64,000 nt of DNA from Promethearchaeota archaeon. GTDB lineage: Archaea > Asgardarchaeota > Lokiarchaeia > Sigyniarchaeales > SOKP01. The notes beneath the pieces were generated by a model that saw only the letters and a program-made list of their open reading frames with translations, did not search any database and was not told the DNA's origin. Position numbers and translations under genes: made by a program. The first letter of the stretch is position 1. Each line of letters starts with the position of its first letter. Location: positions 192,001 to 256,000 of the forward strand of contig JAUVNS010000004.1 of the NCBI GenBank assembly GCA_030599585.1, read 5' to 3'. Below, in pieces: positions 1 to 9,045 of the stretch.

Positions 1-3000
1 TTGGAACGCTATGAATGTAGAGAATAGAATAATATTCTTTGATTTTTTTTCTATTGTGCGATTTAAAAAGCCATTTAATAGAAACATGAGTAATGAAAAG
101 ACAGAAAGAAAGAAACTAAATGAAGGAATTCCAATTAGTAATGGGTTGTAAGCTAGTAGAAAGTCAGTCAATAACAGAGAAAGGTAAAAACTAATCACAA
201 GAAAAATAATATTCAGTAAAATTGCTTGTAATTGATTTTTAATTTCCTTTATTCTATTAGCATCGTATTTAGTTATTACTTCGATATAGTAAGATAAGTA
301 ATGTAATGTATAGAACTGTAATATCAAGAATATAACTAAATTTAAAACAAATAATGTGGCATCATTTCCTGTAAGTTGGGCAAAGTAAATTAATCCACCA
401 ATCGTTATAACAAGAAATGCTATGATATTTAACAAATAAGTGATCTTTTCTATAGTTCTCTTTAAAACATGGATGTCTAATAAAATGGAGAGGAAAAATA
501 TGAAAACGGATAACAATATAGCTCCATATAAGTATAAGCTAATATCTATTAACTCCTGGATCAATCCAAAGCTCAACAAACCAAGTGCAAAATAGGATAC
601 TAATGACAGAATTGAATCAAATTTCGTCATACCATAATCTTTTTCAGGCTGTTGTTCTTCGATTTTCTTCATAAATAAGAATCTTGCTACCGAAAAGTAA
701 GCAGAATAAATCAAAAGTGAAAGTAGAACTATAAAATAGAGCGAATGAAATAATTCTATCAATAGTATAAACTGTAAAGTTAATAATGTTAATGCTAAAG
801 GAGAAATATACCATAGAATAAAACGGTATTCATATAATGCTGATCTAAGAATAATCAAATTGACAGTTATGAATATCGCAGACACTAAAAAGATAGATCC
901 AGGGAGGAAAATATAAACCAAGAACGATAAGGTAAGTGATATTCCAATCGATAAAATTGATAGTGGAAATATTTTTTTAAGAGGTAATATCATTCGAAAT
1001 TTATTAAATACAAGAGTGGAACCGCCAAAAACCGTAATTGCTAAAGATAAAGCGATGAACTCGATATTAGGAATCAATATGAATGTGTTGTAGGTAAAAA
1101 AGGAGAAATTTACGACTAATATTGATGAGATTATAATGTTAAAAAAAGTCCTGCTGAGCTTAAGGAGTCTTGAAGAAAATAGACTGAAAGCGAGTATTAT
1201 AAAAGAGAGGTTAATAGATATAAAGAAATTTAGAATTATTGAATTAATGATCAAGAAAATTGTTAAAAAGATACCTGTCAGAGAAAGAAAATAGGAACTT
1301 ACAAGTAAAATGTTTTTTAAATTTTTTAAATTGGGGAAAAATGATAAAATGACGAAAAAGAATCCCAATACAATTAAATTGATTGATAAGTTAATTTCCA
1401 AGGGTAACAAGATTACTTGGAATAATATAACGAGGAAGCTTACATTTATAAAAATGTAAAATAGCCATAATAGAGTAATGATTTTCCACATTTTCATTCT
1501 ATAAAACACCGGCATTAGAAGAGATACTGCGAAAACAAAAAACACTATATTAGTAATTACTAGATTTTCAGTAAAAACATTTTGACTAAACCAGTATAAG
1601 AAGAACAAGCTAAAACTCCAAACTATTAGTAGAATCCTGGAGAAATGTTTTTTTATCCATGTGTACCAAAAGGGTAGAGAAAGCAAAACACAAATTGTGA
1701 AAGATATTATAAATGAACCACTAATTTGAATCCCAAAGAAATTTAATGCGTTCGTATAAATATTAACATCGGTAAAACTCTCGTTGATGATATAAAAATT
1801 TACAAAGGGAACTATAATCCATAACCTCCACCCCGTTTTCCATATTACCCAAGAGAATTTCCAGTAGTAAAAGCCTACTGATAAGTAGAAAAGAAGGACG
1901 CCAATATTGATGGTTATAATAAACAGGAAAGGGTCCCATATAGGTAGATTAAAAAAGACATTCAAGAAAAAATACATAAAAGTTGGAATAGAAAGAATAT
2001 AGGATGAAAAAGCGATATAAAAAGAAAGGCGCCTGAAATTTTCTGGCGCTTTATTATAAGTCCATACATAACTAATACTGGTAACGCTTAAAGTTAGTGT
2101 AAATGTCAGTATTGGATTAAATTCTATAAAAAATGGATTATTAAACAGAATATTATAAGACAGGAAACTAATGAGGTTAAATACCATAAGCAAAACACCA
2201 GGTCGGATGAACCACTTGTAAATATCATTTTTTTGCTTGTAGTAGAAATTCCCTGTTAATAATAAAAATAGGAATAGAGAGAAAGTAATGATATATATTA
2301 AAGGAATTATGGTATTGTAGAGTAGTAAAAGAAAGGTTATAATCGATATTAAAGTATATAAAGTGAATTTTTCGATTACATTTACATTCCGTATGTTTAA
2401 CACAATAGAAAAGAATAAGACAATCATTAACGAAAGACTGAAATAAAAAAGATAAAAAGCGAAGTCGAGTAGATCGAATGAAGGAATAAACATATAAAAA
2501 TTCAGTGTGGTAATCAATTTTACTAAAATTAACAAGGTAAGCGAGAAGTAGCTAATAATTCGAAATATAAAATTGCGATTCCGATTGGAAATGAAGAAAT
2601 AAATCATAATAATAAAAAATACATAAGCAAAATATTCGAAAACACCCGGAAATATAGAAAAGAAAGTAAATAGCAGTAGTGATGGACCTAGCAATATTCT
2701 TATTAGTTTGAATTCAGCCACATTCTCAATTCTATCATTGTATTTAACCAGATAGTAATTGATTAACGAATAAATACCACAGAATAAAATTAAAAGTCGT
2801 AGTGGTTGATTTGTGCTGTAAAATGGAAACATTTGACTGGAGTTCCAATATAATTCACTGAATATAATAATTAAAGTAAAATAGAACGTGTAATAGATGA
2901 GTCTTTTGTAAAGTGTTAGAGAATCATCAGAGATAAAAAAGTTATTTCTCAGATAATAAATAGTAATAGGACTGAGGAAGGTTAGAATTAGTAAAGGTAA

Positions 3001-6000
3001 ACCAATCCTTTGTATAAGAGATAACTGGGCAGGAAATATCAAAATATAGAAACACAATAGAAATTTAATTATTAACCATGCGGATATATCAAAAACCCAT
3101 CTGAGTCTCGAAAATTCAATTTCGAATAAGTTACGACTGATTGTTGATACTATTAGGTAAGTTAACAGAAAGATTCCAACATTTGTAGTTAATGTTAATA
3201 GTAGGGACTCTTGAAGCTGAAGAAGTGAATAAATGATATTAAATGGAACCAGAAAAATAGTTAGCGAAGCTATCATAAATTCGATGAAAAAATAAGATAT
3301 GTTTTTAGTATATTCGTATATTTTGTAGATTCTGTAATAATCATATTTAGTAAGATCGTTTTCAAATATCCTCTGCTTGAGATTTTCAAGCGGAATTAAG
3401 ATAACCAGATTTAAAATTAAAAATAATAACGAAGAACAACTGATATTGAATCCAATATTAATAGTGAAAGAGTTTAAAACCACAAAAATCTTCGTAGATA
3501 TAACAAGAGATAAAACAACCCAAGTGATAATCTGGCAAGTTTTAATAGAAACGAAATAGGATTCTTTAAGTTTAGATTTATCAAAAAGAGATTCTAGAAA
3601 AACTAAAAATCCAAAAACTAAAGCAATAACCGAACTATTGATTATATAATAATCTACAGCTATACCTAATCTAATAAAATCTAATCCTATTACATAAGGA
3701 AGCGAAGTAATTAATCCCGATATGACTAAACTGTCTATTGTTAACAATTTCTGCACAAAACTGGTGAAAATATTCTTATTTAAGGAATGGAGTAGAGGTA
3801 ATAACAGTGTTATACTTAAGATCAGCAAAGGAATAATATATTTGTAAACCGAAGTAGGTATAAACAAATATAGATAAAATGAGATGAGGATACTAGTGAA
3901 AAACAAACTTACTATATTAAACCCTGTCGAAATTTTTTCTGAAAATAGAATTCTCTTCTTGGTAAAAAAATTAATAATCAAGCTAATAAGAACGATGGAT
4001 ATATATGCTGAAAAAATTAGGTCCAAATGAAGTTGTTGATTAAAGAATGCGAACATTATGAAGAAAACTTCTAACATTATTAAATAACTAATGTAATTTT
4101 CAATAACAATAATTTTTTCGTGAGAAATTATATCTATTTTATCTCCCAATTTCAAAATGTAGAAACACGCAATAGATATGTAAAGTATATTAAGCACGAT
4201 TAACGAATTTAAGATTGTTAAAAATAAATCAGCAATTAAATAGAAGTTTAATATAAAGACAGACAGAACTATGATGCTGGAGCAAAGAAAATGATAGATT
4301 AGGAAGAATTTTTTATTTATTACATTTTTTTTGTGGAGATAATAAATGGGAATATATGAGAGGACGCTAACTAAAATAAGAGGTATAAAAAATCCGAAGA
4401 ACGAACCCCAAGTGTAAAACGCACTATAATATCCCACCAAAAATAAACCTAAATATAACGTAAATGAATTTAATATCAAGGTTAGGAGCTTAGGAAAGAG
4501 TTTATGTTCTTTTGAATCCGAATACACAATTAGACTCATTACCGTAACAGATAAAAACAAGGATATAAGTAAGTCTAATTCCAAATAAATCAGGAAAAAT
4601 GTAATAAGTATGGCAAAAACTTCGAATACAATGGGATAAGATAGGATGTGTAAAAGAGATTTAGATCGTGATTCTTTGAGCATTCTAATTTTCTTCCCAT
4701 ATGAAATTAGGATTATCAAACAAATGGATATAAACAGTAAGTTAAGGATCGTACCAATAATTAGATGTGCGCTGAAGTATATTACAATTATATAAAAATT
4801 CAAAACGAAAAACAAAAACATGAGCAACCATGAGGAACCATAAGTGTAAATTGCGATGATTTTAGGTTTTAATAATTTTTCACTATATAAATAATAAATT
4901 GGAGCAAAAATCAAGAAGCAAAATACAATCGGTGTGATTAAATAAACAATGAAATCACTTATATTTGCGTTTAAGAAGTAAAACCCCGTAATCACTATAC
5001 TAATAATCAGGATAAGTAATGTCCAAGTTATTATTACTTTTCTAGGAATAAATTTTACATTCGGAGGAAAAAGATTAAAAATGATGCCAATAACGCAACA
5101 AGAAAGGAATAAAGCAAGAAATCCGTCCAAAATAAATAGAATTCTGAATACCGCATAAAATAATAAGAATACTTCAATTAAAAGAGCAAAACTATCAACT
5201 CTAATTATAAAATTGAAAGTAGAATCTTTAACTTTTTTTAGATACTGTCCAAATTTAAGGTTTGCTAAACTAAAAACTGACAAATAAGCCAGATCTAAAA
5301 GCAGAATCACAAAATTATTCCAAAAAATTATGAATATTGTAAAAAAAATCGAGAGTAGTAAAAACCAAAAAGCATAATAGCTATAATTCAAGCTGATTTC
5401 TCGAGAGAATATGTGAATACTATAGTTGAGAAGCACGAATAGTAGGAAAATTATTGGAACTATAATTGCAGATAAAATTAGTTCTCCTTGAAATACCTCA
5501 AGAATTCCAGATGCTAGATTTTTAATATTAACTAATGCAAACCAAGTTATTTCTAATAGTAAAAAGACGATCACGATACAATAGTTAAAAAACTTCCAAG
5601 GTTTATCGTATAACCGAATCCGAGCAAACGAAAAATAAAACGACAATAATGTTATTGCTAAGACGATAAAAGTGTGAATTAATACATTGGAGATAAAACG
5701 TACACTTGGATCTATAATGAACTGTAGATATACAAATTCGATTACAGGGAAGAAAAGATATAAAATCATTGTAAAACTCGCAACAACAAGAAGAGTTTGA
5801 ATAATTAGTACCGTTTTTTCTTGAAAGTACTTAAGCTTCTCAAAAACTTGAAATATTATATATGTAGATAGTGAGAGTAAAAGAAATTGAATTAAAAGAA
5901 ACTGAACATTAAAAAACGTTATGCTCGGAAATGGCAAGATCCAAAAGATTACGATGATTGCCACCCCTAAGCTATTAATTAGATATATAAATCTGCCGTA

Positions 6001-6207
6001 AAGAATAGTGATAAAGTTCGATTTTTCTTCGTAATAGGTAAGAATAGAAATTATTGGTAATGTTATAATACCGATTAAAGAAATATCATTTAGCAATGAA
6101 ATTGAGAGGAATAGAAGAATTAAACTGACTGAGACAATAAAGTTTAGCTTTACATAGGTTTGAATATCACCAACATCAACTTCTTCAGCATTGTTAGGAC
6201 TCGTCAA
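1..6207 (-). CDS. Giant polytopic membrane protein (>2069 aa, C-terminus beyond left edge) with 184-aa internal repeats
   Basis: TTG at 6207 after AGGAGGT SD; reads MTSPNNAEEVDVGDIQTYVKLNFIVSVSLILLF... and still open at base 1 (...KNIILFSTFIAFQ). I translated the N-terminal ~45% and the last codons by hand; absence from the ORF track is consistent with no in-frame stop inside the window. Continuous hydrophobic segments. Confidence 0.9.
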   Translation of the reverse strand, partial: MTSPNNAEEVDVGDIQTYVKLNFIVSVSLILLFLSISLLNDISLIGIITLPIISILTYYEEKSNFITILYGRFIYLINSLGVAIIVIFWILPFPSITFFNVQFLLIQFLLLSLSTYIIFQVFEKLKYFQEKTVLIIQTLLVVASFTMILYLFFPVIEFVYLQFIIDPSVRFISNVLIHTFIVLAITLLSFYFSFARIRLYDKPWKFFNYCIVIVFLLLEITWFALVNIKNLASGILEVFQGELILSAIIVPIIFLLFVLLNYSIHIFSREISLNYSYYAFWFLLLSIFFTIFIIFWNNFVILLLDLAYLSVFSLANLKFGQYLKKVKDSTFNFIIRVDSFALLIEVFLLFYAVFRILFILDGFLALFLSCCVIGIIFNLFPPNVKFIPRKVIITWTLLILIISIVITGFYFLNANISDFIVYLITPIVFCFLIFAPIYYLYSEKLLKPKIIAIYTYGSSWLLMFLFFVLNFYIIVIYFSAHLIIGTILNLLFISICLIILISYGKKIRMLKESRSKSLLHILSYPIVFEVFAILITFFLIYLELDLLISLFLSVTVMSLIVYSDSKEHKLFPKLLTLILNSFTLYLGLFLVGYYSAFYTWGSFFGFFIPLILVSVLSYIPIYYLHKKNVINKKFFLIYHFLCSSIIVLSVFILNFYLIADLFLTILNSLIVLNILYISIACFYILKLGDKIDIISHEKIIVIENYISYLIMLEVFFIMFAFFNQQLHLDLIFSAYISIVLISLIINFFTKKRILFSEKISTGFNIVSLFFTSILISFYLYLFIPTSVYKYIIPLLILSITLLLPLLHSLNKNIFTSFVQKLLTIDSLVISGLITSLPYVIGLDFIRLGIAVDYYIINSSVIALVFGFLVFLESLFDKSKLKESYFVSIKTCQIITWVVLSLVISTKIFVVLNSFTINIGFNISCSSLLFLILNLVILIPLENLKQRIFENDLTKYDYYRIYKIYEYTKNISYFFIEFMIASLTIFLVPFNIIYSLLQLQESLLLTLTTNVGIFLLTYLIVSTISRNLFEIEFSRLRWVFDISAWLIIKFLLCFYILIFPAQLSLIQRIGLPLLILTFLSPITIYYLRNNFFISDDSLTLYKRLIYYTFYFTLIIIFSELYWNSSQMFPFYSTNQPLRLLILFCGIYSLINYYLVKYNDRIENVAEFKLIRILLGPSLLLFTFFSIFPGVFEYFAYVFFIIMIYFFISNRNRNFIFRIISYFSLTLLILVKLITTLNFYMFIPSFDLLDFAFYLFYFSLSLMIVLFFSIVLNIRNVNVIEKFTLYTLISIITFLLLLYNTIIPLIYIITFSLFLFLLLTGNFYYKQKNDIYKWFIRPGVLLMVFNLISFLSYNILFNNPFFIEFNPILTFTLTLSVTSISYVWTYNKAPENFRRLSFYIAFSSYILSIPTFMYFFLNVFFNLPIWDPFLFIITINIGVLLFYLSVGFYYWKFSWVIWKTGWRLWIIVPFVNFYIINESFTDVNIYTNALNFFGIQISGSFIISFTICVLLSLPFWYTWIKKHFSRILLIVWSFSLFFLYWFSQNVFTENLVITNIVFFVFAVSLLMPVFYRMKMWKIITLLWLFYIFINVSFLVILFQVILLPLEINLSINLIVLGFFFVILSFFPNLKNLKNILLVSSYFLSLTGIFLTIFLIINSIILNFFISINLSFIILAFSLFSSRLLKLSRTFFNIIISSILVVNFSFFTYNTFILIPNIEFIALSLAITVFGGSTLVFNKFRMILPLKKIFPLSILSIGISLTLSFLVYIFLPGSIFLVSAIFITVNLIILRSALYEYRFILWYISPLALTLLTLQFILLIELFHSLYFIVLLSLLIYSAYFSVARFLFMKKIEEQQPEKDYGMTKFDSILSLVSYFALGLLSFGLIQELIDISLYLYGAILLSVFIFFLSILLDIHVLKRTIEKITYLLNIIAFLVITIGGLIYFAQLTGNDATLFVLNLVIFLILQFYTLHYLSYYIEVITKYDANRIKEIKNQLQAILLNIIFLVISFYLSLLLTDFLLAYNPLLIGIPSFSFFLSVFSLLMFLLNGFLNRTIEKKSKNIILFSTFIAFQ

Positions 6208-7138
6208 TTTTAAACCTCCTTAGGAATTTGCTGTAGAACGTACTTATGTATAATCTGAATTTAAAGTAAAACGCTAAGAAAATGAGAGATAATACCGTTA
6301 TTTTTATGATTTCTATGAAATCGTAATTTTGAGGAATACCAATATAAAAATAAACGATAACTATAACGAAGGGCATTTGAATTAGCAACACGAATAATAA
6401 GCCTAATAATGATTTTACAAATTTTTTCTTAAAAATTGTCAAATCTACTAGGATCGGTTTCTTACTGTCAATTGAAATCGTAATATTTTTACAGATTTTT
6501 ACACTGAAGAGTCGAGAAATGACATAAAATATAATGTTCCAAATGAGAGGAAATAACCAAGAGACTTTTGTATTAAAAGTATAAGAGAGAAATACGATGT
6601 GAACAATGTAGTTAATGAATATTATGATATTATAAGGTTGTCTAACAATTTGAGAAGAAGAAACTGCGTGATTGAATCTCTCTTCCTCTGGATCATAAAA
6701 ACCAATGGGTTGAAAATAATAATAATAGTATACAATATTATACAAAATACTAAAAGAAATTAAAGGTAAAAGCTCAAAGTAGTCATCTCCTGGAGCAAAT
6801 AACACAAAAATAGGGGTAACGATTAAAGATAAGATTGTAATCAAGAAAACGATATCAATTCTTGCGGATAGATTATTTACTTTGTTGGAAAAAAAAGGAT
6901 TTTTCCTGTATTTGTCAAATGCCTTATAAAAAAATAATAAAACAAACATAAAAGTTATAATAGACAACCCAACTGAGACAATAAGGTCTTTACCTATAAA
7001 AAAATAAATAAAAAAGCCTACAACTGCGATTAATGATGGAACTATTATTAAATAAAAACTGAACCACCAAATCTTCCAGAGTAATTCTGTTGCTTTTGTT
7101 AACTTCTCATCAGAAGAGGTGATTTTATTAGATTTCAT
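6194..7138 (-). CDS. Multi-pass membrane protein, unknown function; stop overlaps start of the giant membrane protein gene
   Basis: 314-aa ORF with ~8 hydrophobic segments. Confidence 0.85.
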   Translation of the reverse strand: MKSNKITSSDEKLTKATELLWKIWWFSFYLIIVPSLIAVVGFFIYFFIGKDLIVSVGLSIITFMFVLLFFYKAFDKYRKNPFFSNKVNNLSARIDIVFLITILSLIVTPIFVLFAPGDDYFELLPLISFSILYNIVYYYYYFQPIGFYDPEEERFNHAVSSSQIVRQPYNIIIFINYIVHIVFLSYTFNTKVSWLFPLIWNIIFYVISRLFSVKICKNITISIDSKKPILVDLTIFKKKFVKSLLGLLFVLLIQMPFVIVIVYFYIGIPQNYDFIEIIKITVLSLIFLAFYFKFRLYISTFYSKFLRRFKIDES

Positions 7139-7304
7139 TTTTACAAAATAGTAATATTCTCTATTTTGAGATAAATAGTCACTTTCATTAAAAAATGTTT
7201 ATATGAAAAAAAGGTGTATTTGTAAGAATTTACCGGTAAAAAAAAGAGTCTATCGTCGAAAGTAGTAAAAGAGATAAAAAGAAACAGTTTAAAAAAATTA
7301 TATC

Positions 7305-8636
7305 TTATTGAAATTTGGGTAAAAATTCACTCTGTAATTCTTTCATCTCGCTGAATATTCTGTCAGCCATCTCAAAACTCCCTACATTAGGATCTATGGC
7401 TAATGCATTTATTGCTACTTCCTTAGATTTAGTAAGAACCGCTTCAACGCACAGATCTTGGATACTCGCTTCGATTCGAAGAAGAGCGGCTATATTTTTC
7501 GGTAAATTTCCCCATTTAACTCCGTGTATGCCAGATTTACTAGCTATTATTGGACACTCAATTATTAAATCTTGCGGTAAATTATCTATTATTCCATCGT
7601 TTGGAATGTTGACAGCACTCTCATAGGATGGTTGGTTAGTTATCATCGCTTCAATAATAGGAACTGCTCGTTCTCCTGATATTCCTTTGGAGAGCATGCC
7701 TTTTTTGAGATACCTTCCCTCTTTAAGGCGTTTATAATTCCTCATAACCTTCCTATAGATGCGTTCACCACCTTTTTCAGTGAGGTCAATCCAATCTACC
7801 ATATCTTGTGTTTCAGTAAATTCTTCACCAAATTGTAAATATTCACCAAGGTGATTATCTCCTACATATGGAAAATAGCCAAATCTTTTAAAAACTTCAA
7901 ATGTTAGTGAAGAAAATTCGAACCTCTCTTCGCGTTGTTTAAAATATTCCGGAGCTACCTTGTTAAATTTCGGCATTAAATCCATTCCTGAAGAGATATC
8001 TTCAATTCCCATCAAAAATCCAAAATGATTTAATCCATAAGGTTTTAGTTTTAAATCCTCTAAGTTCTTATTGAGCATTTTAGGTAAATGGTAATTAAGA
8101 GCTCCAATTTGGTGACAAAGTCCGATAGCTTTAAGATTTGGTGTTGTTCTTTTGATAGCTAAGCATACTCTTGCCATTGGATTAGAAAAATTTATGAAAA
8201 ATGCGTTGGGGCAAATATCATTCACGTCTTTCACAATATCTACAATTGGAGGAATTATTCTAAAAGCATGCATAGTCCCTCCTGGTCCCCCACATTCACC
8301 GAGTATTTGAGTCGATCCATACTTTCTTGGAATTTCGTAATCTTCCCTCCATAATTTGTAACGATCTCCTACTTCAATGGAACTTATTATGAAATCAGCA
8401 CCTTTTAGTGCAGATCTACGGTTTGTAGTATGCTCAATAATAAATTTATCGTTGTGGATCTTATTTTCAGTTGTAATTAATTCATTAATTATATTTAAAC
8501 GTTCTTTATCTATGTCATGTAGAACTATTGTCGATCCATGCAAAATTTCACTCTGAAAGAGATCTAATAAAGTAGAAGGTCCAAAAGATGCGCTAGCAGC
8601 CCCAATAAGTACAATTTTACATTTCATTGTTCTCAA
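7305..8636 (-). CDS. Family 4 glycoside hydrolase (NAD+/Mn2+-dependent alpha-galactosidase/alpha-glucosidase)
   Basis: KIVLIGAAS Rossmann start, GECGGPGG, NFSNPM, GLCH, GLNHF motifs; start may be ATG 8627. Confidence 0.92.
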   Translation of the reverse strand: MRTMKCKIVLIGAASASFGPSTLLDLFQSEILHGSTIVLHDIDKERLNIINELITTENKIHNDKFIIEHTTNRRSALKGADFIISSIEVGDRYKLWREDYEIPRKYGSTQILGECGGPGGTMHAFRIIPPIVDIVKDVNDICPNAFFINFSNPMARVCLAIKRTTPNLKAIGLCHQIGALNYHLPKMLNKNLEDLKLKPYGLNHFGFLMGIEDISSGMDLMPKFNKVAPEYFKQREERFEFSSLTFEVFKRFGYFPYVGDNHLGEYLQFGEEFTETQDMVDWIDLTEKGGERIYRKVMRNYKRLKEGRYLKKGMLSKGISGERAVPIIEAMITNQPSYESAVNIPNDGIIDNLPQDLIIECPIIASKSGIHGVKWGNLPKNIAALLRIEASIQDLCVEAVLTKSKEVAINALAIDPNVGSFEMADRIFSEMKELQSEFLPKFQ

Positions 8637-8816
8637 GTATTATTTTAATAAAATAAGTTTAGAAGTGATATAATATCTTCTGTAAGGTTTAATGAGTTTA
8701 AAGAGTTATTGATTACTATTATTGACGCTATTGTCAAAGATTTTCCAAATAAGTAAACAAATGGGAAATAATACCCGCAAAATTTATTAGGGTACACTTA
8801 TTCTATTCTTATAATA

Positions 8817-8897
8817 ATGAATTTTTCGCGGCATAATACTGATTCATGGGTTGGCTGTAATAAGAAGGCCATTATTCCCTTAGTAACAGTATTATAA
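8817..8897 (+). CDS. Candidate leader peptide 1 (26 aa, MNFSRHNTDSWVGCNKKAIIPLVTVL)
   Basis: ATG ~30 nt after TATA-like TTTATTA (8783); Ile/Leu/Val-rich 3' end; stop abuts a 13-bp hairpin; architecture repeated at 9448. Confidence 0.55.
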   Translation: MNFSRHNTDSWVGCNKKAIIPLVTVL

Positions 8898-8952
8898 AGA
8901 GAATAAATCCTTTTTTCTCTCTTTTTCTTTTAATTCTTTGGATTTATTCTCT
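8898..8952 (+). promoter_or_regulatory. Stem-loop with U/C-rich loop directly after leader peptide 1 (putative attenuator/terminator)
   Basis: Perfect inverted repeat AGAGAATAAATCC (8898-8910) / GGATTTATTCTCT (8940-8952) around a 29-nt almost all-pyrimidine loop. Confidence 0.65.
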
Positions 8953-9045
8953 GCGTATGAAGTCTATTAATTTTTAAGAAAAAGTGGGATAAGGGCTTAA
9001 TTCTTACCGTAAATTCTAAAAAAAAGAATGGAGGTGAAAAAAGAA

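Follow-up and report, generated by a model that had tools for sequence, protein, structure and literature searches.

The window analysed here is a stretch of 64,000 nucleotides (nt) from a Promethearchaeota archaeon (C40:192001-256000 of genome G000), and its first bases hold two overlapping minus-strand genes, one of exceptional length and, immediately upstream, a small partner. The frame of the giant gene is open from a TTG codon at position 6207 to base 1 of the window, as the initial annotation had proposed, and provides 2,069 codons in DNA of 27% GC. In the adjoining contig DNA the frame extends a further 1,950 nt past the window edge to a TAA stop at C40:190051-190053, and the full gene recovered in this way contains no in-frame stop. 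The complete protein has 2,718 amino acids, with leucine, isoleucine and phenylalanine making up 46%, and gives a 100% self-match in the genome with zero stops. The gene had been described as missed by the open reading frame (ORF) track; it is indeed absent from the default list, although simply because it runs off the window, and the listing shows it once open-ended frames are allowed. The features at the locus are as follows.

1..6207, minus strand: first 2,069 codons of the giant gene; open frame with start codon TTG at 6207-6205, with homologues and a ratio of non-synonymous to synonymous substitution rates (dN/dS) on record
6194..7138, minus strand: partner gene P0076 (314 amino acids, 8 helices), the N-terminal module of the giant protein as a separate gene
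6214..6219, minus strand: Shine-Dalgarno-like GGAGGT, 6 nt before TTG 6207 and within the end of the partner gene
4843..5394, minus strand: copy 1 of a 184-residue module (residues 272-455), with EVF at residue 345 (nt 5175)
4291..4842, minus strand: copy 2 of the 184-residue module (residues 456-639), with EVF at residue 529 (nt 4623)
3739..4290, minus strand: copy 3 of the 184-residue module (residues 640-823), with EVF at residue 713 (nt 4071)
808..2457, minus strand: the family's best-conserved core (residues ~1251-1800), with many Trp, Pro, Asn, Gly and Ser residues
58..819, minus strand: first copy of an older ~260-residue repeat (residues ~1797-2050), with QFYT at 1964

The giant protein has 73 homologues, with E-values down to 0 and orthologues covered over 100% of their length, and intact homologues of 2,400-4,300 residues occur in dozens of genomes. 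Compared with a 90%-identical orthologue, dN/dS was 0.20 overall, 0.19 in the zone of the 184-residue repeats and 0.12 in the core, with a range across all segments of the gene of 0.12-0.29. The giant gene and its upstream partner are a real, conserved, single-copy pair under purifying selection. The contrary view, that this is a chance or decaying frame whose T-rich codons mimic hydrophobicity, can point to the 27% GC content and to a coding-strand T excess that favours Phe, Ile and Leu codons, yet stops abound in such AT-rich DNA while 2,718 codons stay open, intact homologues occur in dozens of genomes, constraint is found in every segment, and the protein has invariant columns and a strict positive-inside pattern; we consider it refuted for practical purposes, with next to no chance of being right.

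The hydropathy power spectrum of the giant protein has two dominant periods, at ~30 and ~62 residues, and segmentation by dynamic programming delimits 86 membrane-length segments. Lysine and arginine lie almost exclusively on every second loop, these being the cytoplasmic loops of 8-41 residues, and the outer loops, of 1-10 residues, are essentially without either. This register slips only once, at residues 2174-2253, a stretch that becomes two helices once aligned to the earlier copy of the ~260-residue repeat. The giant protein is thus read as having ~87 helices, with the N-terminus inside and the C-terminus outside. The all-membrane character seen by the initial annotation holds throughout; its estimate of about 60 transmembrane helices in the window becomes ~67. 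No soluble domain is present, since no loop exceeds 41 residues. The helices are arranged as tight antiparallel hairpins, and the ~62-residue period is the two-helix rhythm of these. The number of helices could be checked for residues 1156-1860, where a model made with AlphaFold2 (AF2) contains ~25 membrane-length helices compared to 24 by segmentation.

The last 14 nt of the partner gene overlap the start of the giant gene in a different frame. The partner has 8 predicted helices, and its lysines and arginines place both termini inside. In 36 of the 73 homologues, the giant polypeptide itself begins with the partner sequence, as residues 1-~305 (in P0050, for example, with 50% identity to the partner over 310 residues, E 2e-95), and in these fused homologues the equivalent of residue ~2-5 of the giant protein follows directly after the partner part. 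Stand-alone partners of 310-317 residues form more than 100 clusters. In a quick tree of the core, rooted at the midpoint, fused forms are present in every outgroup and the split forms are confined to one clade (Shimodaira-Hasegawa-like approximate likelihood ratio 100), which also includes six fused forms. The split state was checked at the DNA level in the window genome, L004 and L008. As fused forms occur in every outgroup, fusion is the ancestral state, which has changed at least two or three times, and the window locus is a split gene. With the partner as the N-terminal module of the giant protein, the two together give 314 + 2,718 = 3,032 residues and ~95 helices (~87 + 8), which would form the functional unit.

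At the junction, the GGAGGT at 6214..6219 is a putative re-initiation site for the giant half. In L004 and L008 the overlap is again 14 nt, and (A)GGAG and an ATG occupy the matching place; the 90%-identical orthologue likewise starts with TTG. A programmed +1 frameshift within the 14-nt overlap would also join the two halves; it is less likely than re-initiation, as the strong GGAGGT and a start codon are found with proper spacing at the window locus and in the orthologues. No Shine-Dalgarno motif lies ahead of the partner's ATG, in contrast to the strong one before the TTG of the giant gene.

We also predicted a complex between the partner and residues 1-350 of the giant protein, which scored 0.45 against 0.02 for the best control; the mark used for this score is attained by 58 of a set of 80 solved complexes and by 2 of a set of 110 mismatched pairs, but only 7 of the solved complexes, and both mismatches, attained it with a score no higher than 0.60. 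The runs shared at least 74% of contacts and the partner had a predicted local distance difference test score (pLDDT) of at least 72. The model lends weak support to a partner-giant complex. Binding was likely beforehand because the partner is fused to the giant protein in homologues.

The initial annotation had reported an EVF motif at residues 345, 529 and 713 of the giant protein (nt 5175, 4623 and 4071), and both these positions and the spacing of exactly 184 codons are correct, as are the KFG, SYG and KLG flanks and the three P..P helices, which lie at matching offsets around EVF. One more EVF, at residue 237, does not fit the 184-residue register; ~0.5 EVF would be expected from composition. 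The self-alignment at this period is significant. Ungapped autocorrelation with BLOSUM scores over residues 250-900 gave z = 9.2 at lag 184 (22% identity against a background of ~11%), with a harmonic at lag 368 (z = 5.1), and the periodic signal was limited to residues ~270-824. The three units (272-455, 456-639 and 640-823) align without gaps at 17-28% identity, and their Smith-Waterman scores were 4.6-10.4 standard deviations over those of hydropathy-preserving shuffles, exceeding all 300. The units have 6, 6 and 5-6 predicted helices, in agreement with the six originally suggested. The statement that the protein is built from an exact 184-residue repeat therefore needs dividing: the period is exact, but the sequences are only 17-28% identical and the repeat spans 552 of 2,718 residues (20%, residues 272-823).

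Profiles built from the 3 units, or from 54 units (3 from each of 18 orthologues), detected no further copy in the giant protein. Two Phe, one Glu (from EVF), one Ser and one Pro are common to all 54 units, and a Gly (53/54) and a Tyr (52/54) are nearly invariant. With the 54-unit profile, most family members were found to have exactly one copy of the module. Two copies are present in P0039, P0042-45, P0050, P0051 and P0064, and three in the clade of the window protein, P0035 and P0030. Given one to three copies across the family, the 184-residue module is therefore ancestral, with independent amplification in different lineages. The zone that it occupies is the stretch of the giant protein least covered by distant homologues. 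A word-indexed search of limited sensitivity found no free-standing relatives of the module (101-322 residues).

The C-terminal third contains the second, older repeat of ~260 residues (~8 helices). Nearly all of its second copy (residues ~2052-2310, QFYT at 2222) is outside the window. Family-profile windows 2041-2290 matched residues 1797-2014 with independent E-values (i-E) of 2e-18 to 5e-11, compared with a best value of 1e-4 for reversed and locally shuffled control sequences. Weak cross-matches of 781-1150 with 2392-2484 (i-E ~2e-5) and among other windows (1e-3) were around this control level and were not counted. Outside the 184-residue and ~260-residue repeats, no repeat was detectable in the giant protein. 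Other family members have strong repeats elsewhere, with periods of 128-134, 179, 250-261, 289 and 387 residues, and predicted helix counts across the family range from 76 to 115. The giant protein is modular, consisting of the N-terminal module (8 helices), the 184-residue module (6 helices, one to three copies), a non-repeat core and the C-terminal third.

Coverage by distant homologues is best at residues 50-350, 800-1850 (especially 1250-1800) and 2000-2700. When 58 sequences are aligned, 19 columns of the core are invariant and over 50 nearly so, and Trp, Pro, Asn, Gly and Ser account for many of these. The invariant residues include S1452, W1456, G1459, P1467, N1470, P1512, W1530, N1543, P1566, W1574, W1581, P1625 and S1679. 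This non-repeat core (residues ~1250-1800) is probably the functional part of the giant protein. An AF2 model of residues 1156-1860 made with the 58-sequence alignment is all helical (pLDDT 79.8, predicted template modelling score (pTM) 0.63).

The conserved polar residues are distributed unevenly between the two sides of the membrane. Among 36 divergent members, 23 polar or charged positions (Asp, Glu, Lys, Arg, His, Asn or Gln) are at least 90% conserved: cytoplasmic loops hold 15 of these and the cytoplasmic interface 2, while five are placed in the membrane core and one outside. The five in the membrane core are K1048, N1434, N1470, Q1839 and Q2069, none of which is acidic; K1048 is the sole basic residue that our crude segmentation assigns to the membrane core. 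The outer face is the least conserved, with N1543 as its only such position. The alignment thus gives no indication of a pore-like signature.

A survey of Asgard genomes with the core profile gave matches in 51 of the 68 genomes of the window's own family and in 6 of 7 from the sister family of the same Lokiarchaeia order, and in none of 226 genomes sampled from 28 other families of the phylum; the tally over all 301 genomes is given as 58 positives, every one from the two sister families. Most positive genomes have one match, and those with two are cases where the gene breaks across contigs. An exhaustive profile search of 1.84 billion representative proteins returned 55 matches, all of them family members or fragments. 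The family therefore appears restricted, as far as profiles can detect, to two sister families of one Lokiarchaeia order. Sister-family ORFs reach 4,296 residues (L011:4155-17045, minus strand) and 3,938 residues (L012:861-12677, minus strand), both without a Pfam domain, and the 4,296-residue homologue is located in a closed, single-contig genome of 4.36 Mb. When these were compared with the window protein by BLAST, only the core (28% identity over ~390 residues) and the C-terminus aligned.

The genome records themselves call for some comment. The G000 assembly is reported to be 100% complete with 8.9% contamination. The 351-kb contig of the giant gene bears typical archaeal genes (PolB and RadA-like, with TBP in the orthologous loci), and its assignment therefore looks sound. 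P0013 and P0145, which are clear Lokiarchaeia members, are labelled 'Candidatus Nanopelagicaceae bacterium' by NCBI (an actinobacterial metagenome-assembled genome), and Hodarchaeota, Thorarchaeota and Odinarchaeota labels on other members conflict with the GTDB-based sample. These discordant labels are probably due to loose naming or mis-binning.

Neither the giant protein nor the partner matched a family in Pfam at E ≤ 0.1, in NCBIfam or in PADLOC, and sequence searches of the PDB with the whole protein and with profiles of the core and of the partner found nothing at E ≤ 1, so that no full-length match to a characterised family emerged from these four sources. The comparison of the core model with the PDB by Foldseek gave a best E-value of 0.87 (TM-score 0.13); TM-scores ranged over 0.09-0.16, and most rows were soluble alpha-solenoids or complex I subunit L. 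In a wide VIA search, the core model reached a best Z of 8.9 over 125 residues, with generic helical bundles throughout. The ESM atlas returned nothing meaningful by shape and, by features, only unnamed clusters with scores of 0.91 or lower and low recognition. Full-text literature searches found no description of the family. It appears to be unrelated to anything characterised, and to belong to no known family or fold. We hold this descriptive account, of a split and modular protein of ~95 helices, with high confidence.

The genes around the pair were then compared between loci. On the minus strand of the window, the order is an aminotransferase-like gene, a GH4 glycosidase (7305-8636), the partner and the giant gene. 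The order aminotransferase-GH4-giant is repeated in L004, L005, L007, L008 and L009; in L009, GH4 is followed by an inserted toxin-antitoxin pair before the giant gene. In L006, UxaE and UxaC take the place of GH4 upstream of the giant gene, and in the sister-family loci L011 and L013 a gene of the GH13 alpha-amylase family lies upstream. Sugar-metabolism genes thus immediately precede the giant gene, in the same orientation, in three contexts that are unrelated, and the recurrence may be functional or may be synteny by descent. In other sister-family loci the upstream gene is a flotillin or of unknown type, and a rhomboid gene is close by in two of these. Read by eye, the spacer between GH4 and the partner (7139-7304, minus strand, 166 nt) has four runs of oligo-T directly behind the GH4 stop, as well as a TATAAA-like box ~60 nt before the ATG of the partner. 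These elements suggest that the partner and giant genes are transcribed apart from GH4. Downstream of the giant gene are a conserved ORF of ~180 residues without a Pfam family (184 residues in the window genome) and then a GyrI-like protein. Rfam and tandem-repeat scans of bases 1-9000 and 1-7200 gave nothing relevant. The features from other loci are listed here.

L012:12964-14202, minus strand; L014:11080-11745, plus strand; L015:8065-8763, minus strand: Band7/flotillin (SPFH) or rhomboid protease neighbours
L001:10715-11269, minus strand: the downstream ORF of ~180 residues, with orthologous positions in L004, L008 and L010

The flotillin and rhomboid neighbours are proteins of membrane organisation and membrane proteolysis, respectively.

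What the pair does in the membrane can be put forward only tentatively. We favour, at somewhat below an even chance, a membrane-embedded helical array that organises the bilayer and has a conserved cytoplasmic surface. The giant protein and its partner would form a 'transmembrane solenoid' organising or stabilising the lipid membrane, with the two polypeptides reassembling within it. Its conserved cytoplasmic face would be presented to partners or to the inner leaflet, and the array would be neither a pore, a pump nor an outward-facing enzyme. All-membrane hairpins, a varying number of modules and a tolerated split suggest a modular scaffold more than a fixed enzyme or channel. The proposal of a solenoid-like membrane scaffold in the initial annotation is compatible with these same features. 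That annotation overlooked the membership of the upstream gene in the protein, the non-repeat core as its best-conserved region, and the fact that conservation in the family is lowest in the 184-residue repeat zone.

Soluble alpha-solenoids (HEAT, TPR and armadillo) offer a parallel, being tandem antiparallel hairpins whose repeat number varies between orthologues, and they make up most of the weak top rows from Foldseek. They are, however, soluble, and TM-scores of 0.09-0.16 amount to no real structural match. We know of no described solenoid that lies in the plane of the membrane. A bolder form of the proposal is that the family represents a new class, a single-copy 'in-plane solenoid' of ~95 (up to ~130) helices whose length is tuned by module duplication, and which as a ribbon or ring would fence lipid domains or shape and stabilise the thin membrane protrusions for which these cells are typical. 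We regard this extension as unlikely, though worth stating.

Several points weigh against the proposed array. The exceptional conservation of the core is the strongest of these where a purely passive role is concerned: it exceeds the apparent need of a passive scaffold and could mark a binding or catalytic site. The geometry of the array is deduced from the hairpin topology and from the weak lean of Foldseek towards alpha-solenoids, and the topology itself comes from a custom hydropathy segmentation rather than a trained predictor. For residues 1-830, a stretch that takes in the 184-residue repeats, the AF2 model made with 18 orthologues reached only pLDDT 50 and pTM 0.27. Finally, a scaffold leaves the sugar genes upstream in three unrelated contexts unexplained.

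Of the alternatives to the array, handling or protection of lipids in the manner of Arc3A survives best, and we judge it improbable. The dense helices would here sequester or turn over damaged lipids, or shield the bilayer against lipases or toxins. Lokiarchaeia are syntrophs that live in dense consortia, a way of life that would suit such a function. The traits held in common are an all-helical protein with no soluble domain, a variable helix number, and a conserved membrane core and inner face. Among 'massive polytopic' proteins of this style, only Arc3A (PA5114; DUF2339, PF10101; Ting et al. 2022, eLife, PMC8926400) has been studied functionally. With 35 predicted helices and without catalytic residues, it blocks the build-up of lysophospholipids under attack by the Tle3 phospholipase; its authors link the unusual helix density to the mechanism (PMC8926400). 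The likeness extends to densely packed helices in species-variable number, the lack of evident catalytic residues and a small neighbouring partner gene. The giant protein shares the Arc3A-type trait of dense helices without a soluble or catalytic domain, which is a resemblance in kind and not membership.

The differences from Arc3A are considerable. The two proteins have no sequence relation, and Arc3A is bacterial, with its 35 helices against ~95 here. The PF10101 profile had no match in the giant protein, in the six-frame translation of the whole genome or in 151 genomes of the phylum, with control genomes positive, and PADLOC was negative. In the language-model search a DUF2339-bearing cluster appeared merely at rank 28, with a score of 0.83, which is under the level of a lead. 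Homology of the giant protein to DUF2339 was ruled out by the profile searches. Arc3A is partnered by a lipoprotein that spans the periplasm, the giant protein by an 8-helix segment split off from itself, and no Arc3B-type (PF13163) lipoprotein is among the neighbours (the 8-helix module, GH4, the 184-residue protein and the GyrI-like protein). Arc3A also acts among bacterial ester lipids, in contrast to the ether lipids of archaea, on which ester phospholipases do not act.

The recurring sugar genes raise a second alternative, a carbohydrate-linked membrane machine for the uptake or export of oligosaccharides, polysaccharides or glycolipids, working with the adjoining glycosidase. Its basis is the GH4 gene upstream in the window genome, L004, L005, L007, L008 and L009, together with UxaE/UxaC in L006 and GH13 in L011 and L013. 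Within the window's own family, however, the aminotransferase-GH4-giant order may be inherited synteny; the toxin-antitoxin pair separates GH4 from the giant gene in L009; the oligo-T runs and the TATA-like box suggest separate transcripts; and other sister-family loci have flotillin, rhomboid or unknown genes instead. The giant protein matched no transporter or glycosyltransferase family. For the GT-C glycosyltransferases and polysaccharide polymerases, neither Pfam nor NCBIfam gave a match, and the outer loops have no conserved acidic residue, N1543 being the one conserved polar position on that face. We therefore treat the neighbouring sugar genes as a lead and not as evidence of function, and consider this machine very improbable.

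A giant ion channel, mechanosensor or cation/proton antiporter-like transporter, suggested by analogy with Piezo or NuoL/Mrp, has a similarly slim chance. Piezo1 and Piezo2 resemble the giant protein in having a record-size, repeat-built membrane domain of helical units. Piezo has 38 helices per protomer, in nine 4-helix units. The units here are hairpins in modules of 184 residues (6 helices) and ~260 residues (~8 helices), instead of the Piezo-type 4-helix unit; the pore module, cap, beam and soluble part are all missing, and there are ~2.5 times more helices. No Piezo domain of Pfam matched the giant protein, and its outer loops of 1-10 residues include no long loop that could form a cap. 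The initial annotation had rightly presented Piezo as an architectural analogy without claiming homology.

NuoL and MrpA are likewise long, polytopic and helical, and contain internal repeats of 5 helices; weak rows for complex I subunit L and Mrp appear in VIA (Z 7.2-8.0, over 80-133 of 705 residues with a root-mean-square deviation of 3.4-4.5 Å) and in Foldseek (E ≥ 1). The VIA scores are of a size that the tool itself calls common for helical models, and lie within that noise range. The Proton_antipo families had no Pfam match, and the membrane core lacks a conserved acidic residue, with K1048 as its only basic one, in contrast to the conserved mid-membrane Lys/Glu chain of NuoL and MrpA. 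The giant protein also has no extracellular cap and no loop longer than 41 residues, and variation in the copy number of whole modules is hard to square with the fixed geometry of a pore.

We know of no characterised protein near ~95 helices, nor of any that consists solely of membrane hairpins. What is new at this locus is the gene fission, the ancestral 184-residue module in one to three copies, the ~260-residue repeat, the sidedness of conservation and the narrow range of the family, as deduced from comparison of the sequences. The protein raises a question of biogenesis, namely how ~95 helices are inserted and why the array withstands both cutting and the addition of whole modules. The split found in nature, and lineages with one, two or three copies of the module, amount to ready-made experiments on modularity, and the order to which the family belongs includes cultured Asgard species, which makes it directly testable. 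The giant protein may be relevant to the way in which these archaea form and maintain their unusual membranes and, were the in-plane solenoid to prove true, it would be a membrane-organising device in the closest archaeal relatives of eukaryotes.

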